Source of the DNA: Candidatus Omnitrophota bacterium
Lineage (GTDB): Bacteria > Omnitrophota > Omnitrophia > Omnitrophales > Aquincolibacteriaceae
Direction: 5' to 3'
NCBI GenBank assembly: GCA_041653795.1
Contig: JBAZER010000027.1
Location: forward strand, 1 to 30,050
Length of the DNA: 30,050 nt
The notes under the pieces are model-generated. The model was given only the letters and a program-made list of their open reading frames with translations. It did no database searches and was not told where the DNA came from. Both the position numbers and the translations under genes were made by a program. Positions within the stretch are counted from its first letter, which is position 1; each line of letters begins with the position of its first letter. This document shows positions 7,837-29,691 of this stretch, piece by piece.

Positions 7837-8136
7837 CTACTTCCGGCGAACCCAGATACGAGCCCGATCGAGCTCATTGAGAATCCTGTCTTTTTTGACG
7901 ATGATTTTCTCCTGCCGTTTCTTGAGGAATGCCAAGCGGGTCTTGATGCTGCCGGGATCGCTTCCCAATAATCCTGGCCAAGGCTTCCCTTCGGCCGCGA
8001 AGATCTGAGGGGTCAAAAGAACCCCCTCCAACAGCCAGGACAAGAAATAGAGCTTAGGCCCTGCGAATCTCATCGCCTTCGACGACCTGCTGCTTGGGAT
8101 TTTCTTCCACAAGGGTGGCCGCAGAAAATTTATCAT
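7837..8136 (-). CDS. Hypothetical 99-aa protein with a basic C-terminus; overlaps the 3' end of the upstream coiled-coil gene by ~80 bp; uncertain
   Basis: ATG-initiated ORF ending 10 bp before aroA; no recognisable family; would otherwise be a 226-bp gap. Confidence 0.3.
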   Translation of the reverse strand: MINFLRPPLWKKIPSSRSSKAMRFAGPKLYFLSWLLEGVLLTPQIFAAEGKPWPGLLGSDPGSIKTRLAFLKKRQEKIIVKKDRILNELDRARIWVRRK

Positions 8137-9049
8137 AGAGCTTTTCGACCAGGACTGTCGCGATCTCCTGGCCCTGTTTGAGGACCTTCAGCCTGTCCCC
8201 CATTTTGAGTCCTTCTTGAAGTCCCTGATTGACGATCACAAAATTAAATTTTCGGTTCACGGTAAGAACTCTGGCGACTGTCGCCGTCCCGGCAGTTGAG
8301 GAAGCTTCGGAAGATTGCGAGAATTCAGTTGTTGCGGCGCCGGGGGTTTCCGGTGCCGGCGGCGCCGTGATCACGGATCCTCCCTTTGTGACAGGAACCA
8401 CTTTTGCAGTTTCCGCGCTGAAAGGCACCGAGGACGCGACTGGGGGGATGGATGTTGTCATGGAACTTGCGGAGGCAACCGATCTTCCGGAGGCCATGGG
8501 TTTAAAAACGGCCTGGGGAGTTCCGGCCTCATCTGCGGCCACTGTTGAAACGGATGGCACGGAGGCCGATGAGTTTGTAAAAGATTGGGCTGCGGAAAGA
8601 GGATTTGTATTCAGGTCCGCCGGAGTCACTCCACAGGCGGCTTGAGCTTCTTTGGCCTTTTTTTCAAGCTCACCCATCTTCTTCTGAAGTTCCGCGATCA
8701 TCTCTTGATGGCTCTTGAGCTGTTTTTCGAGCACGGCTTTCTCGGAATCAATACGGATTTGTTCGGCCTGAAGTTTTTCAAGCTGGGCCTGCATAGCCTC
8801 GGCCTTGGTACGATACTCTTCGCTCTTGGCCGTGATCTGGTCCTTCTCGGCCGTGATTTGTTCCTTCTCGGCCGCGATTTGTTCTTTCTCGGACTGGACT
8901 GTGATCATTTTTTCTTTGACCTGATCGTACTTGGCCTCGATGCTGCCCCGCACAGTACGTTCCTCGACCCAGCCTTGATACAAATAGTAAGAACCGCCTG
9001 CGGCAGCAATGGAAAGAAGAAATGCTAAAATAATGCCAAGCTTTCCCAT
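8054..9049 (-). CDS. Membrane-anchored coiled-coil protein: N-terminal TM helix, heptad repeats (EKEQIAAEKEQITAEKDQITAK), a Ser/Thr/Pro/Ala-rich linker and a ~75-aa C-terminal beta-rich domain (possibly OB/NfeD-like); function unknown
   Basis: Composition and periodicity seen in the translation; no confident family assignment. Confidence 0.55.
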   Translation of the reverse strand: MGKLGIILAFLLSIAAAGGSYYLYQGWVEERTVRGSIEAKYDQVKEKMITVQSEKEQIAAEKEQITAEKDQITAKSEEYRTKAEAMQAQLEKLQAEQIRIDSEKAVLEKQLKSHQEMIAELQKKMGELEKKAKEAQAACGVTPADLNTNPLSAAQSFTNSSASVPSVSTVAADEAGTPQAVFKPMASGRSVASASSMTTSIPPVASSVPFSAETAKVVPVTKGGSVITAPPAPETPGAATTEFSQSSEASSTAGTATVARVLTVNRKFNFVIVNQGLQEGLKMGDRLKVLKQGQEIATVLVEKLYDKFSAATLVEENPKQQVVEGDEIRRA

Positions 9050-9505: not shown

Positions 9506-9650
9506 AATGCTTTCTCCTTTTGGTTTGAACCGAGTTCCCGTATCCGATGTCCCGGACCCGCGCCCACGGCCTTTACTGGGTTAGTATCATACAATACAGT
9601 TTCAAAGACGACAATAAAGCTTTTCTGTCCAAGTCTTTATTTCATTTGGT

Positions 9651-9800
9651 TAATGGTGACTTGGACTGCCCTGGTTACCCATTGATTTTTTCATGAGAAC
9701 CAAGGACTGTCCAGATCTCTTGTTTCTTTTTTATAATGGCGATCTGGACTGCCCTGATTACCCGTTGATTTTTGAATGAGAATCAGGAGCTGTTTCTGTT
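9651..9800. repeat. Two tandem ~70-bp repeats (9651-9725 and 9733-9800, ~85% identical) in the nrdR-SWIB spacer. Each contains a hairpin CC(C)TGRTT-[acccRttgattttt..atgag]-AAYCAGG, with a compensatory G:C to A:T change between the copies
   Basis: Read directly: arms 9669-9676/9698-9705 and 9752-9759/9781-9788. The single mismatch in copy a becomes a G-U wobble only in a minus-strand RNA. Confidence 0.5.
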
Positions 9801-17374: not shown

Positions 17375-18796
17375 TCATAGCTTGCAGCAATTCCTTTTAT
17401 GCTCCAGTTTATACTTGTCATCCGCATCATAGATTTTGGTCGGGTATTTCCCGGTAAAACATGCTGCGCAAAAGTCTTTCGGGTTTTGCGTCGTCGAACC
17501 AAGCATCCCCTCGAGACTCAGGTACCCGAGCGTATCCACGTTAAGGAATTTCATAATCTCCTCAATGCTTTTATTGGCCGCCAAAAGCTCTTTTTTCGAC
17601 GGAAAATCGATCCCGTAAAAACAGGGCGAAATGTGCGGCGGACAGCTGATCCTCATATGCACTTCCTTGGCGCCCGCACTCCTCAAAAGTTTCACGCGGT
17701 TCTTCGCCGTGTTCCCGCGCACGATCGAATCGTCGACCACAATCACTCGTTTGCCGTCCACGACCTGACGGATAGGGTTCAATTTGATCTTCACCTTGAG
17801 CTGGCGGCCCGCTTCTGAAGGACTAAGGAATGTGCGTCCGATATAGTGGTTACGGATGAAACCGTGCGAAAACGGTATCCCCGATTCCCTTGAATAGCCC
17901 AAGGCCGCAAAACTGCCTGAGTCCGGCACCGGGATCACGATGTCTGCGTCCACGGGATGTTCCCTGGCGAGCTGCCGGCCCAGTTTTTCACGCACAAGTC
18001 CCACGCTATCGTGAAAAATATTGGAATCCGGCCTGGCGAAATAGACGTGCTCAAAAATGCACTGCGCCTTGGCGATCTTTTCATCCTTAAAAGGAAAATG
18101 ACTGCGAAGCCCTTTACTGTCGATCACGACGACCTCGCCCGGCTCGATTTCGCGGACAAACTCCGCCTCGATCAGATCGAACGCGCAAGTCTCGGACGCA
18201 AGCACGTAACTCGGCCCTAATTTCCCGAGACAAAGAGGCCGGAACCCTTGCGGGTCGCGGACCCCGAACAAATGGTCCTCGGTCAGAAGAACCAGGCTGA
18301 ATGCACCTTTCGCGCGCTTTGCCGCCTCGATCACGCCTTCTTCATGAGAACGGTAGGATGGTTTGGCGATCATGTGCACAAAGACCTCGGAATCGATCGT
18401 GCTCCCGAAAATGGAGCCATAAGCCTCCAGCTCCGCGCGAAGGATCTGCGCATTCACAAGGTTCCCGTTATGCGCAATCGCGATCTGTCCGCGCGAATAA
18501 TCGACCTTGTAGGGTTGGGCGTTCAAAAGCGTCGAAGATCCGGTCGTGGAATAGCGCACATGGCCGATGGCGTTTTTCCCGGGGAGCTGCGCAAAAGAAG
18601 ATTCGTCGAACGCCTCACCCACATGCCCCATTTTCTTGACGAGATAAAGGTCAGAACTGTCGCTTGTGCAGATCCCGGCTGCTTCTTCGCCGCGATGCTG
18701 AAGCGCAAAAAGCCCGAGCTGTGTGATGCGCGCCGCCTGGGGATGATTGTAGATACCAAAGATGCCGCAATGATGCTTGATGTTTTCGCCGCTCAT
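17375..18796 (-). CDS. purF: Amidophosphoribosyltransferase. Start at the internal MSGENIKHHCGIFG (N-terminal Cys nucleophile); C-terminal Cys cluster of the Fe-S type
   Basis: Ntn-glutaminase CGIFG motif, PRTase domain; RBS GGAGAA upstream of the internal start. Confidence 0.9.
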   Translation of the reverse strand: MSGENIKHHCGIFGIYNHPQAARITQLGLFALQHRGEEAAGICTSDSSDLYLVKKMGHVGEAFDESSFAQLPGKNAIGHVRYSTTGSSTLLNAQPYKVDYSRGQIAIAHNGNLVNAQILRAELEAYGSIFGSTIDSEVFVHMIAKPSYRSHEEGVIEAAKRAKGAFSLVLLTEDHLFGVRDPQGFRPLCLGKLGPSYVLASETCAFDLIEAEFVREIEPGEVVVIDSKGLRSHFPFKDEKIAKAQCIFEHVYFARPDSNIFHDSVGLVREKLGRQLAREHPVDADIVIPVPDSGSFAALGYSRESGIPFSHGFIRNHYIGRTFLSPSEAGRQLKVKIKLNPIRQVVDGKRVIVVDDSIVRGNTAKNRVKLLRSAGAKEVHMRISCPPHISPCFYGIDFPSKKELLAANKSIEEIMKFLNVDTLGYLSLEGMLGSTTQNPKDFCAACFTGKYPTKIYDADDKYKLEHKRNCCKL

Positions 18797-18829
18797 AAGA
18801 ACTGTTCTCCATTTAATTTTAAAGGTTAA

Positions 18830-18875
18830 CAGTCCCAATACCTATCAATTTCAGCTTTGCTGAAATTGGGGCTGT
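18830..18875. promoter_or_regulatory. Nested dyad element AGTCCCAAT-acctat-CAATTTCAGC-ttt-GCTGAAATTG-GGGCT, 35 bp upstream of purF; a second copy is at 25391-25434
   Basis: 10-bp perfect inner inverted repeat plus an outer 9-bp imperfect one; not followed by a T-run on either strand. Confidence 0.4.
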
Positions 18876-18945
18876 CCAAACTGCCTTATTGGAAAAGAAA
18901 CCGAAAGTTTGGGCTGTACTAATACCGCAAACCCTCAAAATTTAT

Positions 18946-19045
18946 ATGCGTTGCTCCAGTTATTCCCTCCTGTAGGGCACATTTAAATGTGCCCTACGGA
19001 AGAGAGGATAGAGCGAATATCTCTCAGGAAACCGGAACAATGCAT
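18946..19045 (+). mobile_element. MITE copy 1 (100 bp). Imperfect ~16-bp TIRs (ATGCGTTGCTCCAGTT / AACCGGAACAATGCAT), a central 26-bp perfect palindrome GTAGGGCACATTTAAATGTGCCCTAC, and a 5-bp TSD TTTAT (18941-18945 and 19046-19050). Sits between purF and purL
   Basis: Three near-identical copies in the window, each with its own 5-bp direct duplication. Confidence 0.65.
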
Positions 19046-19063
19046 TTTATATAAAATGCGGTA

Positions 19064-21331
19064 TTATTTTCGTTCCATGATATTGGGAATCGTGTTTTCG
19101 AAAAGTTTCACCATGTTCCCGACTGTCAGCCGGATCCGGTCTCCCAGGATGAGCGTGTCTCCGCCTACCTTACCGATTTCGTAAAGTGCAACCCCCTGTT
19201 TCTGCGCCAAATTCCTGATGTCCTTTTGATGCTCGGGCGTGACCGAGATTACCACACGTGACTGACTTTCGCCGAAATAAAGTGCATCCGCACGAAGTTC
19301 CTTTTGATCTTTCAAAACACCGTCAAGACCGTTCACCACAGCACCCAAGCCGCCGGCGCTCTTGATGCAACATTCGGCAAGCGCAACCGCAAGCCCGCCC
19401 TCGGAAAGATCATGACAGGAAACGATTTTTTTTCCGTCTGCGGCGGCAAGGATGAATTGATGAAGCGCCTTTTCGCGCGCGAGGTCAAGGCGCGGCGGCA
19501 GGCCCTGCTTCAATCCGTGCTCGATCATCAGGTAGTGGCTCCCGCCAAGTTCATTGAACGTTTCGCCCGCGAGAAAAATAATATCATCAGCATTCTGGAA
19601 CGCCGACGGGACGCGTTTTTCGATATTCTCCAAAAGACCCACCATGCCGATCGTGGGCGTCGGATAGATGGCGCCCTGCGGGCTCTCGTTATAGAAGCTG
19701 ACGTTCCCGCCTGTCACCGGGATCTCAAGCGCCTTGCAGGATTCGATAATCCCGGAGACGGCGCTATGAAATTGCCAGAAAATCTCGGGTTTCATGGGAT
19801 TGCCGAAATTAAGACAATTTGTCACACCGACCGGCCGTGCGCCGGAACAGACGACGTTACGCGCCGCTTCCGCAACGGCGATTTTTCCGCCCTCGAACGG
19901 ATCGAGATAAACATAAAGACTGTTGCAATCGGTCGAGACCGCAATTCCTTTTTGTGTTCCCTTGATGCGGATGAGCGCAGCGTCATGTCCCGGATAAAAG
20001 ACCGTGTCCGTACGGACCATGTGGTCGTACTGTTGCCAAACCCAGGCCTTGGAAGCAATCGAAGGATCTGAGAGCAGTCGCTTGAGTACGTCACTGAAAT
20101 TCTCGGGCTCGGAAATTACGGCAAGATCAAGTTTTTGCGCTTCGGCAAGGTAGGCCGGCTTTTCTTCTTCACGCATATAAACTGGCCCGTCATCCGCAAG
20201 CGCTTTGGCCGGGATCTCCGCGGCCATTTTTCCCCCGTCCAGCACGCGATATTTGTCACCCCGGGTCACTTCGCCGATCTTTACGGCATGAAGGTCCCAT
20301 TTCGTGAAAATGTCCTCGACCTCTTTTTCCTTTCCTTTTTTGACAATGACCAGCATGCGCTCCTGCGATTCCGAAAGCAGGGTTTCATAGGGGGTCATTC
20401 CGGGCTCGCGGCGCGGCACTTTTGCGAGATCGATCTCGACCCCGGTGCTTGCGCGGGACGCGGTCTCGCAACCTGCACAGGTCAGGCCCGCGGCGCCCAT
20501 ATCCTGCATACCCACAAGCGCGTCGGTCCTGAGAAGCTCCAGACACGCTTCCATCAAAAGTTTTTCCATAAACGGATCACCCACTTGCACGGCCGGGCGG
20601 TCCTCATGACTTTGTTCCGAGAGCTCTTTGGAAGCGAATGCCGCGCCGCCAAGTCCGTCACGGCCGGTCGTGGCTCCCACATAATAAACCGGATTGCCGA
20701 TGCCGTGCGCCGCGCCGCGCACGATCTCATCTTTTTGGATGATCCCGAGCGCCATCGCATTCACCAGGGGATTTCCTTCATAAGCAGCATCAAAATAGAT
20801 ATCGCCTCCGACGGTCGGAATGCCCATGCAATTACCGTAATGCGCGATCCCTGCGACCACCCCGCGGAAAAGCCGCTGACTCACCGGCTGCGCGAGATCC
20901 CCGAACCGGAGAGAATTCATTAAAAGGACCGGCCGCGCGCCCATGGTGAAAATATCCCGGAGAATGCCGCCCACGCCCGTTGCCGCACCCTGGAAGGGCT
21001 CGATCGCCGACGGATGGTTATGACTTTCGATCTTGAAACACACCGCAAGACCGTCGCCGATATCCACGATCCCGGCATTCTCCTGTCCCGGTTTCACGAG
21101 CAGGTGCTCCTGACGCGGGAGTTCCGCATTCATTTTGGAAAAGAGCTTGAGGATGGACTTGGAATTCTTATAAGAGCAATGCTCGCTCCACATCACGCTG
21201 AACATCCCGAGTTCTGTGATGTTGGGGTCCCGGCCGAGAATGTCCCGGATATGTTGAAACTCTTCCGGCGTGATTCCGTGCGCCGCGATTAATTCCGAAG
21301 TGATAGGTGTCGTCGAATCCAGTACCGGCAT
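19064..21331 (-). CDS. purL: Phosphoribosylformylglycinamidine synthase subunit PurL (FGAM synthase II)
   Basis: 755 aa, two PurM-like repeats, typical small-PurL N-terminus (...[12 protein letters not shown]...). Confidence 0.9.
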
Positions 21332-21334
21332 AAT

Positions 21335-22024
21335 TTATTCCAGTGCGTTTGAGATGCTTTCGAAAATCCTGCGTCCGTCCGAAGAGCCGAGGAGGTCTTC
21401 ACTCGACCGCTCCGGATGCGGCATCATGCCCAGGACGTTCTTTTTCCTGTTCACGATGCCCGCGATGTGGTCCCTGGAACCGTTCGGGTTGAACTCTTCC
21501 CCGAGCTTCCCGTCCTCGGACGAATAACGAAAAACGACCTGGGAGTGGTCATGGAGGGACTTCAGCGTATCATCATCGCAATAATAATTCCCTTCGCCGT
21601 GCGCGATGGGAACACAAAGTGTCTCGCCCGGTTCCATCTGACCGGTAAAAATCGTCAGGTTCTCTTCCGTGCGGATCCAGGTGTGCTTGCAGATAAATTC
21701 CAGCGTTTTGTTCCGAAGCATCGCGCCCGGCAAGAGCCCGGCCTCCAGAAGGATCTGGAATCCGTTGCAGATCCCGATCACGGCCCGGCCGTCATTGGCG
21801 TGTTTGATCACCGATTCCATGACGGGAGAAAAGCGCGCGATCGCGCCGGTCCTGAGATAATCGCCGTAGCTGAACCCCCCGGGAATAACCACCAGATCCA
21901 CTTTGGGAAGGCTCCGGTCCTTGTGCCAGACATATTTCACAGGCACTTTGACGACGTCCTTAAGCGCATGGAAACAATCCGTATCGCAATTGGAACCCGG
22001 AAATACAATGACCGCGGCTTTCAT
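21335..22024 (-). CDS. purQ: Phosphoribosylformylglycinamidine synthase glutaminase subunit PurQ
   Basis: Class I glutamine amidotransferase with [14 protein letters not shown]... start; 229 aa. Confidence 0.9.
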
Positions 22025-22120: not shown

Positions 22121-22159
22121 TTTCCGCCAGAGGCGGACACAAACTCGCAATAACACATT

Positions 22160-22259
22160 ATGCATTGTTCCGGTTTCCTGAGAGATATTCGCTCTATCCT
22201 CTCTTCCGTAGGGCACATTTAAATGTGCCCTACAGGAGGGAATAACTGGAGCAACGCAT
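22160..22259 (-). mobile_element. MITE copy 2 (100 bp, inverted orientation, identical to copy 1), TSD ACATT (22155-22159 and 22260-22264). Lies in the purQ-purS spacer
   Basis: Exact reverse complement of copy 1, flanked by a 5-bp direct repeat. Confidence 0.65.
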
Positions 22260-22270
22260 ACATTCTTTGT

Positions 22271-22528
22271 TTATGAAGGCACTTCTTGAATTTCGAATGA
22301 ATACTCTTCGATCACAGGATTATGAAGCAGCTTGTCGCACATGACGTGAATACATTCCTCCGCCTTTGTACGGTCGTCCGCTTCAAGCGCCAGCTCGAAA
22401 TACTTTCCGATCCGCAGGCTCTTTGCCTCTTTGAACCCCAGGGACTCGAGCGCGTGAAGCGTCGTTTGTCCCTGCGGGTCCAGGACCGATTTTTTTAAAC
22501 TGGTATGAATTCTTGCTGTAAATTTCAT
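22271..22528 (-). CDS. purS: Phosphoribosylformylglycinamidine synthase subunit PurS. Start at the internal MKFTARIH; the listed ORF runs to 22591
   Basis: 85-aa PurS fold sequence (…LDPQGQTTLHALESLGF…). Confidence 0.85.
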   Translation of the reverse strand: MKFTARIHTSLKKSVLDPQGQTTLHALESLGFKEAKSLRIGKYFELALEADDRTKAEECIHVMCDKLLHNPVIEEYSFEIQEVPS

Positions 22529-22613
22529 GTCGATCAACCCTCTTTCGTGTAGTTCGAATCTTCCCGCCTGGGACTGGGCCCCATTATTCAACGGCGGTAT
22601 GTTTTTTTAACTT

Positions 22614-25113: not shown

Positions 25114-25363
25114 CTGATGTATCCAATTTATTTTCCCACATGGCTACATTAGGGCTGCACTGATTTCTCGATTCTTTTCTCAATAGAAAATCAGGCGCCC
25201 TGATGGACCTATTCAATCAGGCGCCATACAAACACGGGGCCTGTCAGAAACTAACCAACGATTGAAAACTGATTACGCCCTGATGGATCCAATTCATTTT
25301 TCCAATGGCTCCATTAGGGCTGCATTGATTTCCCGATTCATTTCTATATGGAAAATCAAGCGG
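25109..25363. repeat. Two tandem ~88-bp units (25109-25197 and 25275-25363, ~85% identical) directly upstream of tRNA-Glu. Each has hairpin 1 GCCCTGATGKA...TMCATTAGGGC and hairpin 2 YTGATTTCYC...RGAAAATCAR. A diverged middle segment also starts CGCCCTGATGG
   Basis: Read directly. Three compensatory base-pair changes between the two copies; G-U wobbles appear only in the plus-strand RNA sense. Confidence 0.6.
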
Positions 25364-25390: not shown

Positions 25391-25434
25391 CAGTCCCAAT
25401 TCTTTTCAATTTCAAAAAATCTGAAATTGGGGCA
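25391..25434. promoter_or_regulatory. Second copy of the nested dyad: CAGTCCCAAT-tcttt-TCAATTTCA-aaaaatc-TGAAATTG-GGGCA. Lies upstream of the tRNA-Glu/purB transcription unit
   Basis: Same outer and inner arms as 18830-18875, but a different loop sequence and length. Confidence 0.4.
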
Positions 25435-25566
25435 GCCCTCGTCACCATTCAAAAAACAAAGACAAGGGCAGTATAGCTTTGCCCCTATAGGATGTCAACG
25501 GAACTAGTCCCGGTCACCTTAAATTCAGCAAAAGTCGGGGCGATCGAACGACGCGGAAAGACAATA

Positions 25567-26887: not shown

Positions 26888-27123
26888 CGCTTCTGGTATC
26901 GGCTAAACAACCCCAGGACTAGAGACTAAGAACCAAGAGCCTATCCTGATAACAATGTTGCGTCATTGCGAGGAACCTGCGAAGCAGGGACCGTGGCAAT
27001 CTCGTTTTTTTCGTTCTTGTAGAAAAAGATCGCTACGCCCTCTTCTCCGCCAAAGGACGGATTCGTCCGACGCCTTGTGGCGAAGGGGCCCGCGATGACA
27101 AATTGAAATCTGGAGAACTTAAA

Positions 27124-27223
27124 ATGCGTTGCTCCAGTTATTCCCTCCTGTAGGGCACATTTAAATGTGCCCTACGGAAGAGAGGATAGAGCAAATATCT
27201 CTCAGGAAACCGGAACAATGCAT
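27124..27223 (+). mobile_element. MITE copy 3 (100 bp, 1 mismatch to copy 1), TSD TTAAA (27119-27123 and 27224-27228). Sits between xerD and the flavoprotein gene
   Basis: Same TIRs and palindrome; flanked by a 5-bp direct repeat. Confidence 0.65.
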
Positions 27224-27232
27224 TTAAAGTTT

Positions 27233-27964
27233 CTACTTCTTGTCCGCAAGCTCCTGAAGAGTTTTTCTGAAATAGGCCTCGGCGCCCCGAATGTACTGCT
27301 CTTCCGGGATGAGGGGTTTTTCGAGCTCTTCCTGAAGCTGGCTGGAAATCCGGCCGGTTTTCACGACCTCCTCGCCGGCCCTGCGAAGCAGTTCTTTGTA
27401 ATGACGGACCGGAAGCCAGGACCAGAAAGATTTCTTGGACAGAATGGTCCCGCCGCCGCGATAGATTTCGGCAACGAGCTCCGTATTCATGTTCCGTGCA
27501 ATTCTCCGGAAAAGAAGCTTCAGGACCTGGAAGTGGCTCTGTTCCGGGAAACCGCAGTTCGAGATCACCGCGATCTTGGGAATCTTTGCAAGATCGACCC
27601 TGTGCCGGCACTCTCCGCCCGTATCTTTCTCAAAATAGGGCTCGGCCGTCGGGATCATACGATCCATAAAATTCTTCATAATACCCGTCACGTTATCCAC
27701 ATAAAGAGGCGTGGCAAAAACGACAAGATCGGAACTTCCCAGTTTGGGGAGCAGCTCCGCCATGTCATCCTGAATGGCACACTTGCCGGGCGTTTTAAGC
27801 CAGCAGGCATAGCACCCAGTGCAGGAATGGATCTTCTTGTGCGCGAGAAAAACGTTTTCGGTTTCCGCGCCGGCCCCGCGCGCCCCTTCAAGGAACGCCT
27901 GGACCATTACGTCCGTGTTCCCTCTTTCCGCCTGCGGACTCCCGTTAAATACTGTGATCTTCAT
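27233..27964 (-). CDS. Iron-sulfur flavoprotein (Isf) / NADPH-dependent FMN reductase-like flavodoxin-fold protein with a CX2CX2CX7C cluster motif
   Basis: MKITVFNGSP flavodoxin-like start; HSCTGCYACWLKTPGKC cysteine motif typical of the Isf family; start set at the internal Met. Confidence 0.7.
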   Translation of the reverse strand: MKITVFNGSPQAERGNTDVMVQAFLEGARGAGAETENVFLAHKKIHSCTGCYACWLKTPGKCAIQDDMAELLPKLGSSDLVVFATPLYVDNVTGIMKNFMDRMIPTAEPYFEKDTGGECRHRVDLAKIPKIAVISNCGFPEQSHFQVLKLLFRRIARNMNTELVAEIYRGGGTILSKKSFWSWLPVRHYKELLRRAGEEVVKTGRISSQLQEELEKPLIPEEQYIRGAEAYFRKTLQELADKK

Positions 27965-28389: not shown

Positions 28390-29691
28390 TTATTCCGCTA
28401 CTTTGACAGCGTAGCCTTCATCGAGCAGTTTTTGGTTCACGTACACACTGCTCACAAAAACATCCGCCAAGTAGCGGTCGTATTTATCTGACTTCACGGT
28501 TTTGATGAGGATCGGCGAATTTTTTCCAAGCATCTTCTCAAGCGCCTTCTTCGCTCCCATGCCGTCCGCCGTCGCGATCTCAGGCGCGTCAATTCCGCGC
28601 AGGCGAAGCTTTTGGACTGTCCGGAACCCGAAACCGAGATCCACAACAGCCTTGATCGTGTCGCCATCAATGACTTCGAGGACTTTGATTTCATAAGTAT
28701 ACCCGGGCTCAGTAGCCCGAGTACTGCCCGTCTCGACTTTTGCCTTCTCTTTATAAATGGCAGTCGGGACGGCCCCAATCTCCGCTGCGCTACGATTGAT
28801 AGGTATTGAGACCGGCGAGTTTTGGACAACTCGCCCGGGGCTGTAAAGCTCTAGGGAATATTTCCCATTTGGGTCTTGAGAGGAGGTGACGACATCCCCT
28901 TCTTTGAAGGCCTTTGTGTCGGCCACGACTTCTGACAGTCGAAGGTAATTCGAGAACCCAAGATCGAGGACTCGCTCACTTTCTTCAGTACCGCAGACTA
29001 CGCGGTACGTGTGCGGAATGCCGGGTTTGGCCGTGAGTTTGGCTTCTTTTTTTGGGACTTGCATCCCATTTCTTGCGGCTTTGCGCTTTCTTACTTCGGC
29101 ACGAACTTGATCCTGCGTCCAGTTCTCCTTCGCTGCTTTTTCTTCCAGCTCGGCACGTTCATCAGGGTCATTCACGGAAAGGAGTGTTTCATAGTTGGCC
29201 CAGCTTAATTTTCCGGGCGCCCGGAAATTCGGGTAAGTGCGGGCGAACTGAAGCATGTAGTAGAGCTCGGTATCACTCATACCCAGATCTTTGGATAATC
29301 TTAAGATCACCTGTTTGCCGTAATCGGCGCGCTCTTTGTGCTGAAGCACATGCGCATCAATGAGTCTGCCGATCTCCCAGGCCTCACGCACGCGTTCCTG
29401 TTCCACGGCCTTCTCGACACGGGCACGGCTCTCAGTCCGCGCCCCGCGAATCGCAGTAAGTAATTGATCATAAGTTCCAACTTTGGTCGCGGACACTGTA
29501 GACGATTGCCCCAAATCGTCACTGCGTCGTGCCTGTTCACCGCGTTTTTCAGCGGTCCCTGTGGGATTGCGAACAGGCGAAGTTTGAACCTGCGCCGCAA
29601 ACCCCAAGGAAACACACTGGAAGAATAGAAGGAAGGAAATAACTGCAAGCCTAGCCACATCACGAATCAACATAGGTCTATAACCTTTCAA
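28390..29691 (-). CDS. Secreted or membrane-anchored two-domain nuclease. It has an N-terminal hydrophobic signal/anchor, a YhcG_N (DUF1016)-like domain (LSWANYETLL..NDPDER...ENWTQDQV) and a C-terminal staphylococcal/thermonuclease (SNase) domain (VIDGDTIKAV...LRLRGIDAPE...DKYDRYLADV)
   Basis: Motif-level matches to the N-terminal domain of the YhcG family and to the SNase catalytic region; 433 aa. Confidence 0.7.
   Translation of the reverse strand: MKGYRPMLIRDVARLAVISFLLFFQCVSLGFAAQVQTSPVRNPTGTAEKRGEQARRSDDLGQSSTVSATKVGTYDQLLTAIRGARTESRARVEKAVEQERVREAWEIGRLIDAHVLQHKERADYGKQVILRLSKDLGMSDTELYYMLQFARTYPNFRAPGKLSWANYETLLSVNDPDERAELEEKAAKENWTQDQVRAEVRKRKAARNGMQVPKKEAKLTAKPGIPHTYRVVCGTEESERVLDLGFSNYLRLSEVVADTKAFKEGDVVTSSQDPNGKYSLELYSPGRVVQNSPVSIPINRSAAEIGAVPTAIYKEKAKVETGSTRATEPGYTYEIKVLEVIDGDTIKAVVDLGFGFRTVQKLRLRGIDAPEIATADGMGAKKALEKMLGKNSPILIKTVKSDKYDRYLADVFVSSVYVNQKLLDEGYAVKVAE

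Follow-up and report, generated by a model that had tools for sequence, protein, structure and literature searches.

A probable 100-bp MITE, recently mobile, with two insertions in the pur operon of a Candidatus Omnitrophota bacterium

Gene context of the window

The DNA analysed here, referred to as the window, is a stretch of 30,050 nucleotides from a Candidatus Omnitrophota bacterium (GenBank assembly GCA_041653795.1, contig JBAZER010000027.1, positions 1 to 30,050). All genes of the window lie on the minus strand and are housekeeping in kind. Besides the pur genes they include rodA, a PBP2-like gene, mreC, mreB, an EPSP-synthase-family gene, glyA, a Sua5-like gene and a Band-7 gene. Past the pur genes a tRNA-Glu and the genes for a Xer-type recombinase, an FMN reductase and a DUF1016 nuclease are found. 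No transposase gene was detected within the window.

A 100-bp element occurs three times in this region. Read along the minus strand, the order of the operon is purB-purC-purS-copy 2-purQ-purL-copy 1-purF-purM-purD, while copy 3 is located 4-10 nt past the stop codon of the FMN-reductase gene and upstream of the gene for the Xer-type recombinase. The features concerned are as follows.

17375-18796, minus strand: purF, 473 amino acids from the ATG at 18796-18794, the same length as in relatives
18941-18945 (left) and 19046-19050 (right): TTTAT, target-site duplication of copy 1
18946-19045, plus strand: copy 1 of the element (100 bp), between the purL stop and the purF start
18972-18997: 26-bp perfect palindrome of copy 1
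19064-21331, minus strand: purL (FGAM synthase II), 85-92% identical to Omnitrophota PurL
21335-22024, minus strand: purQ
22155-22159 and 22260-22264: ACATT (plus strand), target-site duplication of copy 2
22160-22259, minus strand: copy 2 of the element (100 bp), between purS and purQ
22208-22233: the same palindrome motif in copy 2
22271-22591, minus strand: purS, open reading frame as listed
27119-27123 and 27224-27228: TTAAA, target-site duplication of copy 3
27124-27223, plus strand: copy 3 of the element (100 bp), with one G>A change; the stop of the FMN-reductase gene is at 27233
27150-27175: the same palindrome motif in copy 3

All pur reading frames are intact despite the insertions, including purQ, purL, purF, purM and purD. 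The true start of purS probably lies further in than the listed frame suggests, the PurS proteins of relatives comprising 84-85 amino acids. Upstream of the tRNA-Glu and purB, at 25470-25498 on the minus strand, a near-consensus sigma-70-type promoter (TTGACA-17-TATACT, 11 of 12 positions) was detected; this site may plausibly serve as promoter for a transcription unit of the tRNA and the pur genes. Elsewhere in the window, a 331-aa coiled-coil-like reading frame (8054-9049) contains three tandem 21-nt units at 8824-8886 that translate into an in-frame 7-residue repeat.

Structure of the element

The positions, strands and near-identity of the three copies agreed in every detail with a preliminary description of this DNA. 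Copies 1 and 2 are identical (ATGCGTTGCTCCAGTTATTCCCTCCTGTAGGGCACATTTAAATGTGCCCTACGGAAGAGAGGATAGAGCGAATATCTCTCAGGAAACCGGAACAATGCAT) and copy 3 carries a single G>A exchange, i.e. there are 0-1 mismatches among the three. Copies 1 and 2 are inserted in opposite orientation, the reverse complement of copy 1 and the forward sequence of copy 2 falling in the pur transcript. Each copy is flanked by identical direct repeats, so the pentamers TTTAT, ACATT (AATGT in the orientation of the element) and TTAAA are not reading errors.

Both structural features that had been attributed to the element, the 26-bp perfect palindrome and the imperfect 16-bp terminal inverted repeats, are present. The palindromic 26-mer GTAGGGCACATTTAAATGTGCCCTAC in the centre (GTAGGNCA-NNTTTAAANN-TGNCCTAC) occurs 3 times in the window compared to 0.00 occurrences expected from 100 shuffles. 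The terminal inverted repeats (ATGCGTTGCTCCAGTT / ATGCATTGTTCCGGTT) are paired at 13 of 16 positions (alignment p~0.0025 versus shuffles) and sit outside the central hairpin, the imperfect termini being ATGCRTTGYTCCRGTT at one end and AACYGGARCAAYGCAT at the other. The element is predicted to fold as a long hairpin in both orientations (-44.7 kcal/mol, z = -7.0, and -48.7 kcal/mol, z = -8.6), with the terminal repeats base-paired in either fold.

The element is non-coding: its longest reading frames comprise 9-20 codons, and no Pfam-bearing open reading frame overlaps it. A search of the window against Rfam (Rfam 15, gathering threshold) yielded two tRNAs only and no family for the element. 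Its best match reached 24.5 bits compared to a threshold of 88, and the matches at E<=1 were spurious hairpins.

Further copies in Omnitrophota

The exact left 20-mer of the element was used as query against one genome per prokaryotic species. Matches were obtained in two Omnitrophota MAGs only, SO_2017_LW4_11 (five contigs) and QZM4_2.bins.380.Tibet. In JGI metagenomes the same 20-mer was found at 53 loci, nearly all from Ga0265297 and three from Ga0172380. After removal of duplicate flanks 68 distinct sites remained, to which five with one mismatch in the 20-mer were added, giving 73; these are counts per metagenome, not per genome, and some sites may represent one locus in different strains. 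Copies were seen only in Candidatus Omnitrophota MAGs and metagenomes, and a search of plasmid records and viral contigs yielded no copy.

The copies are strikingly uniform. Compared to copy 1 of the window, 45 of the 68 are identical, and none of the 73 differs by more than three substitutions or one 1-nt insertion. An exact duplication flanks the element at 71 of the 73 sites; the duplicated sequence comprises 5 bp in 60 cases, 6 bp in 10 and 7 bp in one, and one of the two sites scored as having none shows a 5-mer with a single mismatch. The recent mobility proposed earlier from three copies is thus borne out by about 70 further near-identical copies with different flanks and mostly 5-6-bp duplications. 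The exact 20-mer scan mostly misses older, diverged copies, so that the family may look younger than it is. Several copies are located at contig ends, as repeats of this sort break assemblies.

Two copies in locus L026, separated by 191 nt, have the same flanks and both show the duplication TTAAAA, as if the segment had been duplicated locally in tandem. The loci L007/L047 and L050 have similar flanks (GGATTTGATATACTATAT) and duplications of 5 bp versus 7 bp, a pattern that suggests independent insertions at paralogous targets.

Target sites and genomic placement

A target profile was derived from 55 reconstructed empty sites, the surrounding DNA having 51% G+C. The resulting consensus, AWAY|WWNWW|RTWT, is AT-rich and two-fold symmetric: A is found at -4 in 41 and at -2 in 43 of the 55 sites, T at +2 in 47 and at +4 in 39, and the remaining positions are A/T at -3, C/T at -1, A/G at +1 and A/T at +3. 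A transposase dimer that cuts with a 5-nt stagger would be expected to leave such symmetry around the duplicated pentamer. The symmetry provides independent evidence that the flanking repeats arose by insertion and not by coincidence.

With a crude gene model (simple longest reading frames), 59 sites could be scored for their placement. 52 of them (about 88%) are intergenic, and the other 7 lie mostly 20-140 nt from the end of a reading frame. Among the intergenic sites, 29 are in co-directional, 11 in convergent and 12 in divergent spacers, and many copies occupy very short spacers that look operon-internal. There is no orientation bias in the co-directional spacers, where 13 copies are sense and 16 antisense.

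Empty sites and older repeats in the pur spacers

Relatives lack the element at both pur sites. Among those whose PurL is 89-92% identical, the stop codon of purL directly adjoins or overlaps the ATG of purF, leaving neither spacer nor element (junction GGAGCGTAAATAAATGAGCGGC in L071 and L072, CAATAATGGGCGGC in L073 and L074). The gene coordinates of the closest PurL relative, P0125, give the same picture. In the window, 267 nt separate the purL TAA from the purF ATG at 18796-18794; 105 nt of these are the element plus one duplication and 162 nt belong to another repeat, referred to here as the outer repeat. A third type of repeat adjoins copy 2.

18797-18940, minus strand: larger part of the outer dispersed repeat, forming the purL-purF spacer and hosting copy 1
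19051-19063, minus strand: remainder of the outer dispersed repeat, between copy 1 and the purL stop codon
22053-22152, minus strand: third repeat type (ATTGCGAG...GAGATTGCC-GC-rich hairpin-CCTCGCAATGACG), purS-purQ spacer

The outer repeat is built of hairpin units (CAGTCCCAAT...ATTGGGGCTG) and is unrelated to the element. It is also found at 25391-25433 and 28736-28812 of the window, with about 35 partial matches in other Omnitrophota loci. As it is missing from the purL-purF junction of the relatives, an earlier insertion of this repeat created the spacer, into which the element was inserted later; the outer repeat now supplies the GGAG preceding the ATG of purF. The placement of copies 1 and 2 in the purL-purF and purQ-purS spacers thus stands as first described, except that the purL-purF spacer is not native. 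In L043, the outer repeat is present at an unrelated locus and carries the element at the same relative position with the duplication TTAAAT instead of TTTAT, pointing to a preferred target inside the outer repeat.

The purS-purQ junction provides a clean empty site: L071 reads AATAGTGTGTCATTGCGAA where the window has AAGAATGT, the element and AATGTGTTATTGCGAG. L071 and the window have a common spacer repeat here (ATTGCGA...GAGATTGCCGCG...CCTCGCAATGACG); the third repeat type is thus present in L071, which is without the element. These empty sites contradict the alternative that the 100-mer is a sequence conserved at the same loci among relatives.

Small intergenic repeats are unusually frequent in the window. 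The third repeat type is also found near 26955-27003, in L042 (60-100) and in several Omnitrophota intergenic regions, its core (GAGATTGCC-hairpin-CCTCGCAATGACG) often being preceded by ATTGCGAG...GCAATCTC. Further short hairpin repeats of the type CTGATTTC...GAAAATCAG are located at 1007-1064, 25140-25197, 25305-25362, 9637-9710 and 9720-9793; two near the tRNA-Glu and two near 9.7 kb are arranged in tandem.

Search for an autonomous partner

The preliminary description had predicted an autonomous partner with a transposase generating 5-bp duplications. In neither the window nor about 620 kb of Omnitrophota DNA was an autonomous element with the termini of the 100-mer detected, and the one transposase linked to the element belongs to an unrelated nested IS (see below). 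A search of the loci and the window for solo or widely spaced termini (25-mers with <=4 mismatches, 16-mers with <=3) gave only contig-end truncations and chance matches. Among the loci there is no other long repeat with a reading frame, an 820-nt segment common to L014 and L059 being without a long one, and tblastn yielded no weak IS4-like transposase homologues. Mobilisation in trans is accordingly inferred.

One partial end deserves mention. In L003 (Tibet Omnitrophota MAG, JAMWDC010000001.1, 1198-1295), the first 25 nt of the element are followed by unrelated G-rich sequence. The site fits the target consensus, and the contig stops after 98 nt. This may be either a non-autonomous variant or the end of an autonomous element.

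The gene for the Xer-type recombinase next to copy 3 was considered as a mobiliser and rejected. The other approximately 70 copies are not linked to such genes, and tyrosine recombinases do not make target duplications of this kind.

An IS4-family element nested in the palindrome

At the end of contig L054, nt 1-44 of the element pass into a stretch that is identical in L031, where it forms the 3' end of a gene for a 462-aa transposase. The same 44 nt are joined to the 3' end of the IS4-family transposase gene in L063, and L067 shows the same junction (CGGTATTG joined to CATTTAAATGTGC). The 462-aa protein matches NCBIfam NF033592 at 214.8 bits as well as Pfam Nterm_IS4 and DDE_Tnp_1, and is named 'IS4 family transposase [Candidatus Omnitrophota bacterium]' at NCBI. 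An identical gene forms a contig of its own (L065, 1,497 nt) in the sample of the window (ENA assembly ERZ27247363). The 1,497-bp IS was located as follows.

L062, 497-1993: 1,497-bp IS4-family IS
L063, 270-1766: the same IS
L066, 1804-3300: the same IS
L054, 1-144: the same IS
L065 and L067: the same IS

The IS has 19-bp perfect terminal repeats (CAATACCGTTCAGTTAAGG). A 10-bp repeat adjoins it at either end, GGTTTAAACC in L062 and CGTTTAAACG in L066. In L063, L054 and L067 the IS is bordered by CATTTAAATG, the 10-bp centre of the palindrome of the window's element. In all these Omnitrophota cases the 10-bp repeats are the exact centres of palindromes of this type, and the IS was seen in Omnitrophota at such centres only. 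A 46%-identical relative from an NCBI genome (L070) inserts elsewhere, with a perfect non-palindromic 10-bp duplication (GTTTTAGGCT) directly at the IS ends; a 63% relative (L075) has only one recognisable end. This looks like strong palindrome-specific targeting, and the simplest reading of the junctions is that the IS inserted into pre-existing copies of the elements with a strong preference for the palindrome.

The arms flanking the IS in L062 (441-496 and 1994-2055) are not those of the window's element. They reconstruct a 108-nt sibling, called B-type here, whose terminal repeats measure 27 bp and which contains the palindrome GTAGGGCAGGTTTAAACCTGCCCTAC as well as an additional hairpin. 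A B-type copy free of the IS begins contig L042 (1-53). In L063, a B-type arm is found on one side of the IS and an arm of the window's type (A-type) on the other, which may be explained either by recombination between two IS copies or by an assembly chimera. In L066 the palindrome around the IS is of a third type (AGGTCACGTTTAAACGTGACCT). The palindrome-centred nesting of this IS, which is located outside the window, is the most unusual observation of our study.

Origin of the element and its effect on the operon

We consider it very probable that the element is a MITE, i.e. a non-autonomous transposon with terminal inverted repeats and target-site duplications which has been mobile recently. 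This core of the preliminary description is supported by the duplications, the symmetric target consensus, the approximately 70 additional copies and the empty sites in close relatives. The MITE would be moved in trans by a transposase that binds its imperfect terminal repeats (ATGCRTTGYTCCRGTT), presumably one of the DDE type, and that cuts the target consensus with a 5-nt, sometimes 6-nt stagger. The family would have expanded very recently in one or a few Candidatus Omnitrophota lineages; in that of the window it was inserted twice into spacers of purBCSQLFMD and once downstream of the FMN-reductase gene. The pur insertions would be co-transcribed with the operon, adding a stable hairpin to the mRNA, and would probably be neutral or tolerated.

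Other origins have to be weighed against this. A REP/REPIN-type repeat, spread by a RAYT (IS200/IS605-like) single-strand transposase with GTAG...CTAC as its signal, would likewise appear as an intergenic hairpin repeat of about 100 nt, and the central stem of the element is indeed bounded by GTAG/CTAC in genomes that carry several other hairpin repeats. However, REP/REPIN spread produces no target duplications, whereas exact duplications of 5-7 bp surround 71 of 73 copies within a symmetric target consensus; moreover, the terminal inverted repeats extend beyond the hairpin and there is no RAYT gene in the window. We therefore give this origin practically no chance. The direct junction between nt 1-44 of the MITE and the transposase gene in L054, L063 and L067, together with the identical gene in the window's own sample, could also mean that the MITE arose from the 1.5-kb IS by internal deletion and is moved by the 462-aa transposase. 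The 10-bp palindrome CATTTAAATG at the junction could have mediated such a deletion, and the B-type termini are similar to the ends of the IS (p~0.0005). For the window's MITE this does not hold: local alignment of the IS end with the two MITE ends gave p = 0.09 and 0.65 relative to shuffles, which is not significant. In addition, the IS core is complete on its own, as indicated by its 19-bp perfect ends and by the 10-bp duplication directly at the IS ends in L070, and it makes duplications of 10 bp, the norm of its family (PMC2266710), compared to 5-6 bp for the MITE. A B-type copy exists without the IS (L042), and about 70 MITE copies are intact compared to 1-2 carrying it. The IS was accordingly rejected as parent, its core being complete and its 10-bp duplications lying at the palindrome centre; derivation from it is very unlikely. 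The MITE serves as a target of the IS and is not derived from it.

A further alternative concerns not the origin of the element but the reason for its presence: it might be a functional RNA or regulatory module (attenuator, processing site or stabiliser) retained for its effect on pur expression. The very stable fold in either orientation, the two copies within one operon and the many other copies in short spacers of co-directional genes would fit such a role. On the other hand, close relatives do without the MITE at both pur sites and have purL and purF translationally coupled, the two pur copies are opposite in orientation, the population as a whole is unbiased, and copies also occur between convergent and between divergent genes. 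No T-run follows the stem, which continues with GGAAGAGA or AGGAGGGA, and a scan of the MITE copies for terminator-like or promoter-like consensus sequences found nothing. The opposite orientations in pur, the lack of bias, the relatives without the MITE and the intact downstream genes suggest that it is largely non-polar and tolerated, and the same observations argue against retention for a function, which we regard as unlikely. From the earlier suggestion that the hairpin acts as attenuator, RNase target or stabiliser, the very stable hairpin stands and nothing further, there being neither a U-tract nor an orientation bias. By analogy with other bacterial MITEs, processing or stabilising effects on the pur mRNA are possible.

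The MITE reading, which we prefer, may be extended to a two-level system in which the palindrome of the MITE and its siblings is a dedicated landing pad for the IS4-family element, while the MITE itself is moved by an undescribed transposase lineage. The latter might possibly be IS4-related and IS1634-like, reading a 13-bp symmetric AT-rich target. We put this forward only tentatively and think it rather unlikely. If MITE arms also carry the nested IS, there would be a layered 'parasite of a parasite' in the small-genome Omnitrophota, and this arrangement, if true, would repeatedly seed hairpins inside essential operons.

Comparison with known systems

A full-text literature search revealed no description of MITEs or IS elements in Omnitrophota. 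The MITE may be used as a strain-level marker in this uncultivated phylum (Candidatus Omnitrophota), and it explains contig breaks in Omnitrophota metagenome assemblies. Furthermore, the influence of a stable 100-nt hairpin on an operon could be studied here in a natural setting and in both orientations, purL and purF being translationally coupled in the relatives.

The Correia elements of Neisseria are MITEs of about 100-150 bp which duplicate TA and for which promoters, IHF binding and RNase III cleavage are documented. Like the MITE described here they are small, non-coding, high-copy and mostly intergenic, with terminal inverted repeats and a long hairpin, and they are often co-transcribed with their neighbours. 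Their TA duplication differs from the 5-6 bp at AWAY|WWNWW|RTWT observed here, and the host in our case belongs to the Omnitrophota. The bcr1 element of the Bacillus cereus group, a MITE-like, intergenic and transcribed repeat of about 155 bp, duplicates TTTAT specifically. Its small size and AT-rich duplication of 5 bp resemble those of our MITE, TTTAT being the very pentamer of copy 1 in the window. Compared by description only, bcr1 differs in its specificity for TTTAT, as the MITE of Omnitrophota uses many pentamers (TTTAT at 3 of 73 sites).

Within the IS4 group, IS4 family members duplicate about 10 bp and the related IS701, ISH3 and IS1634 make duplications of 4, 4-5 and 5-6 bp, respectively (PMC2266710). 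The IS4 family sensu stricto is physically linked to the MITE palindrome through the nested IS, in the same sample as the window, but this IS makes 10-bp duplications, has unrelated 19-bp ends and moves alone in relatives. For IS1634, an IS4-related 'emerging family', duplications of 'five to six bp AT-rich tracts' are described (De Palmenaer et al. 2008, PMC2266710), matching the 60:10 mix of 5 and 6 bp found for the MITE. Its weak terminal consensus C-----YT (PMC2266710), in contrast, does not fit the MITE end ATGCGTTG, and no IS1634-type transposase was found near the MITE copies. By its duplication, a single feature, the IS1634 family would be the best fit, which offers a lead to the partner and does not establish membership. 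In architecture and behaviour the element is a textbook MITE, and nothing here alters the understanding of how MITEs work; what sets it apart from the well-known bacterial families is its duplication, its sequence and the phylum of its host.
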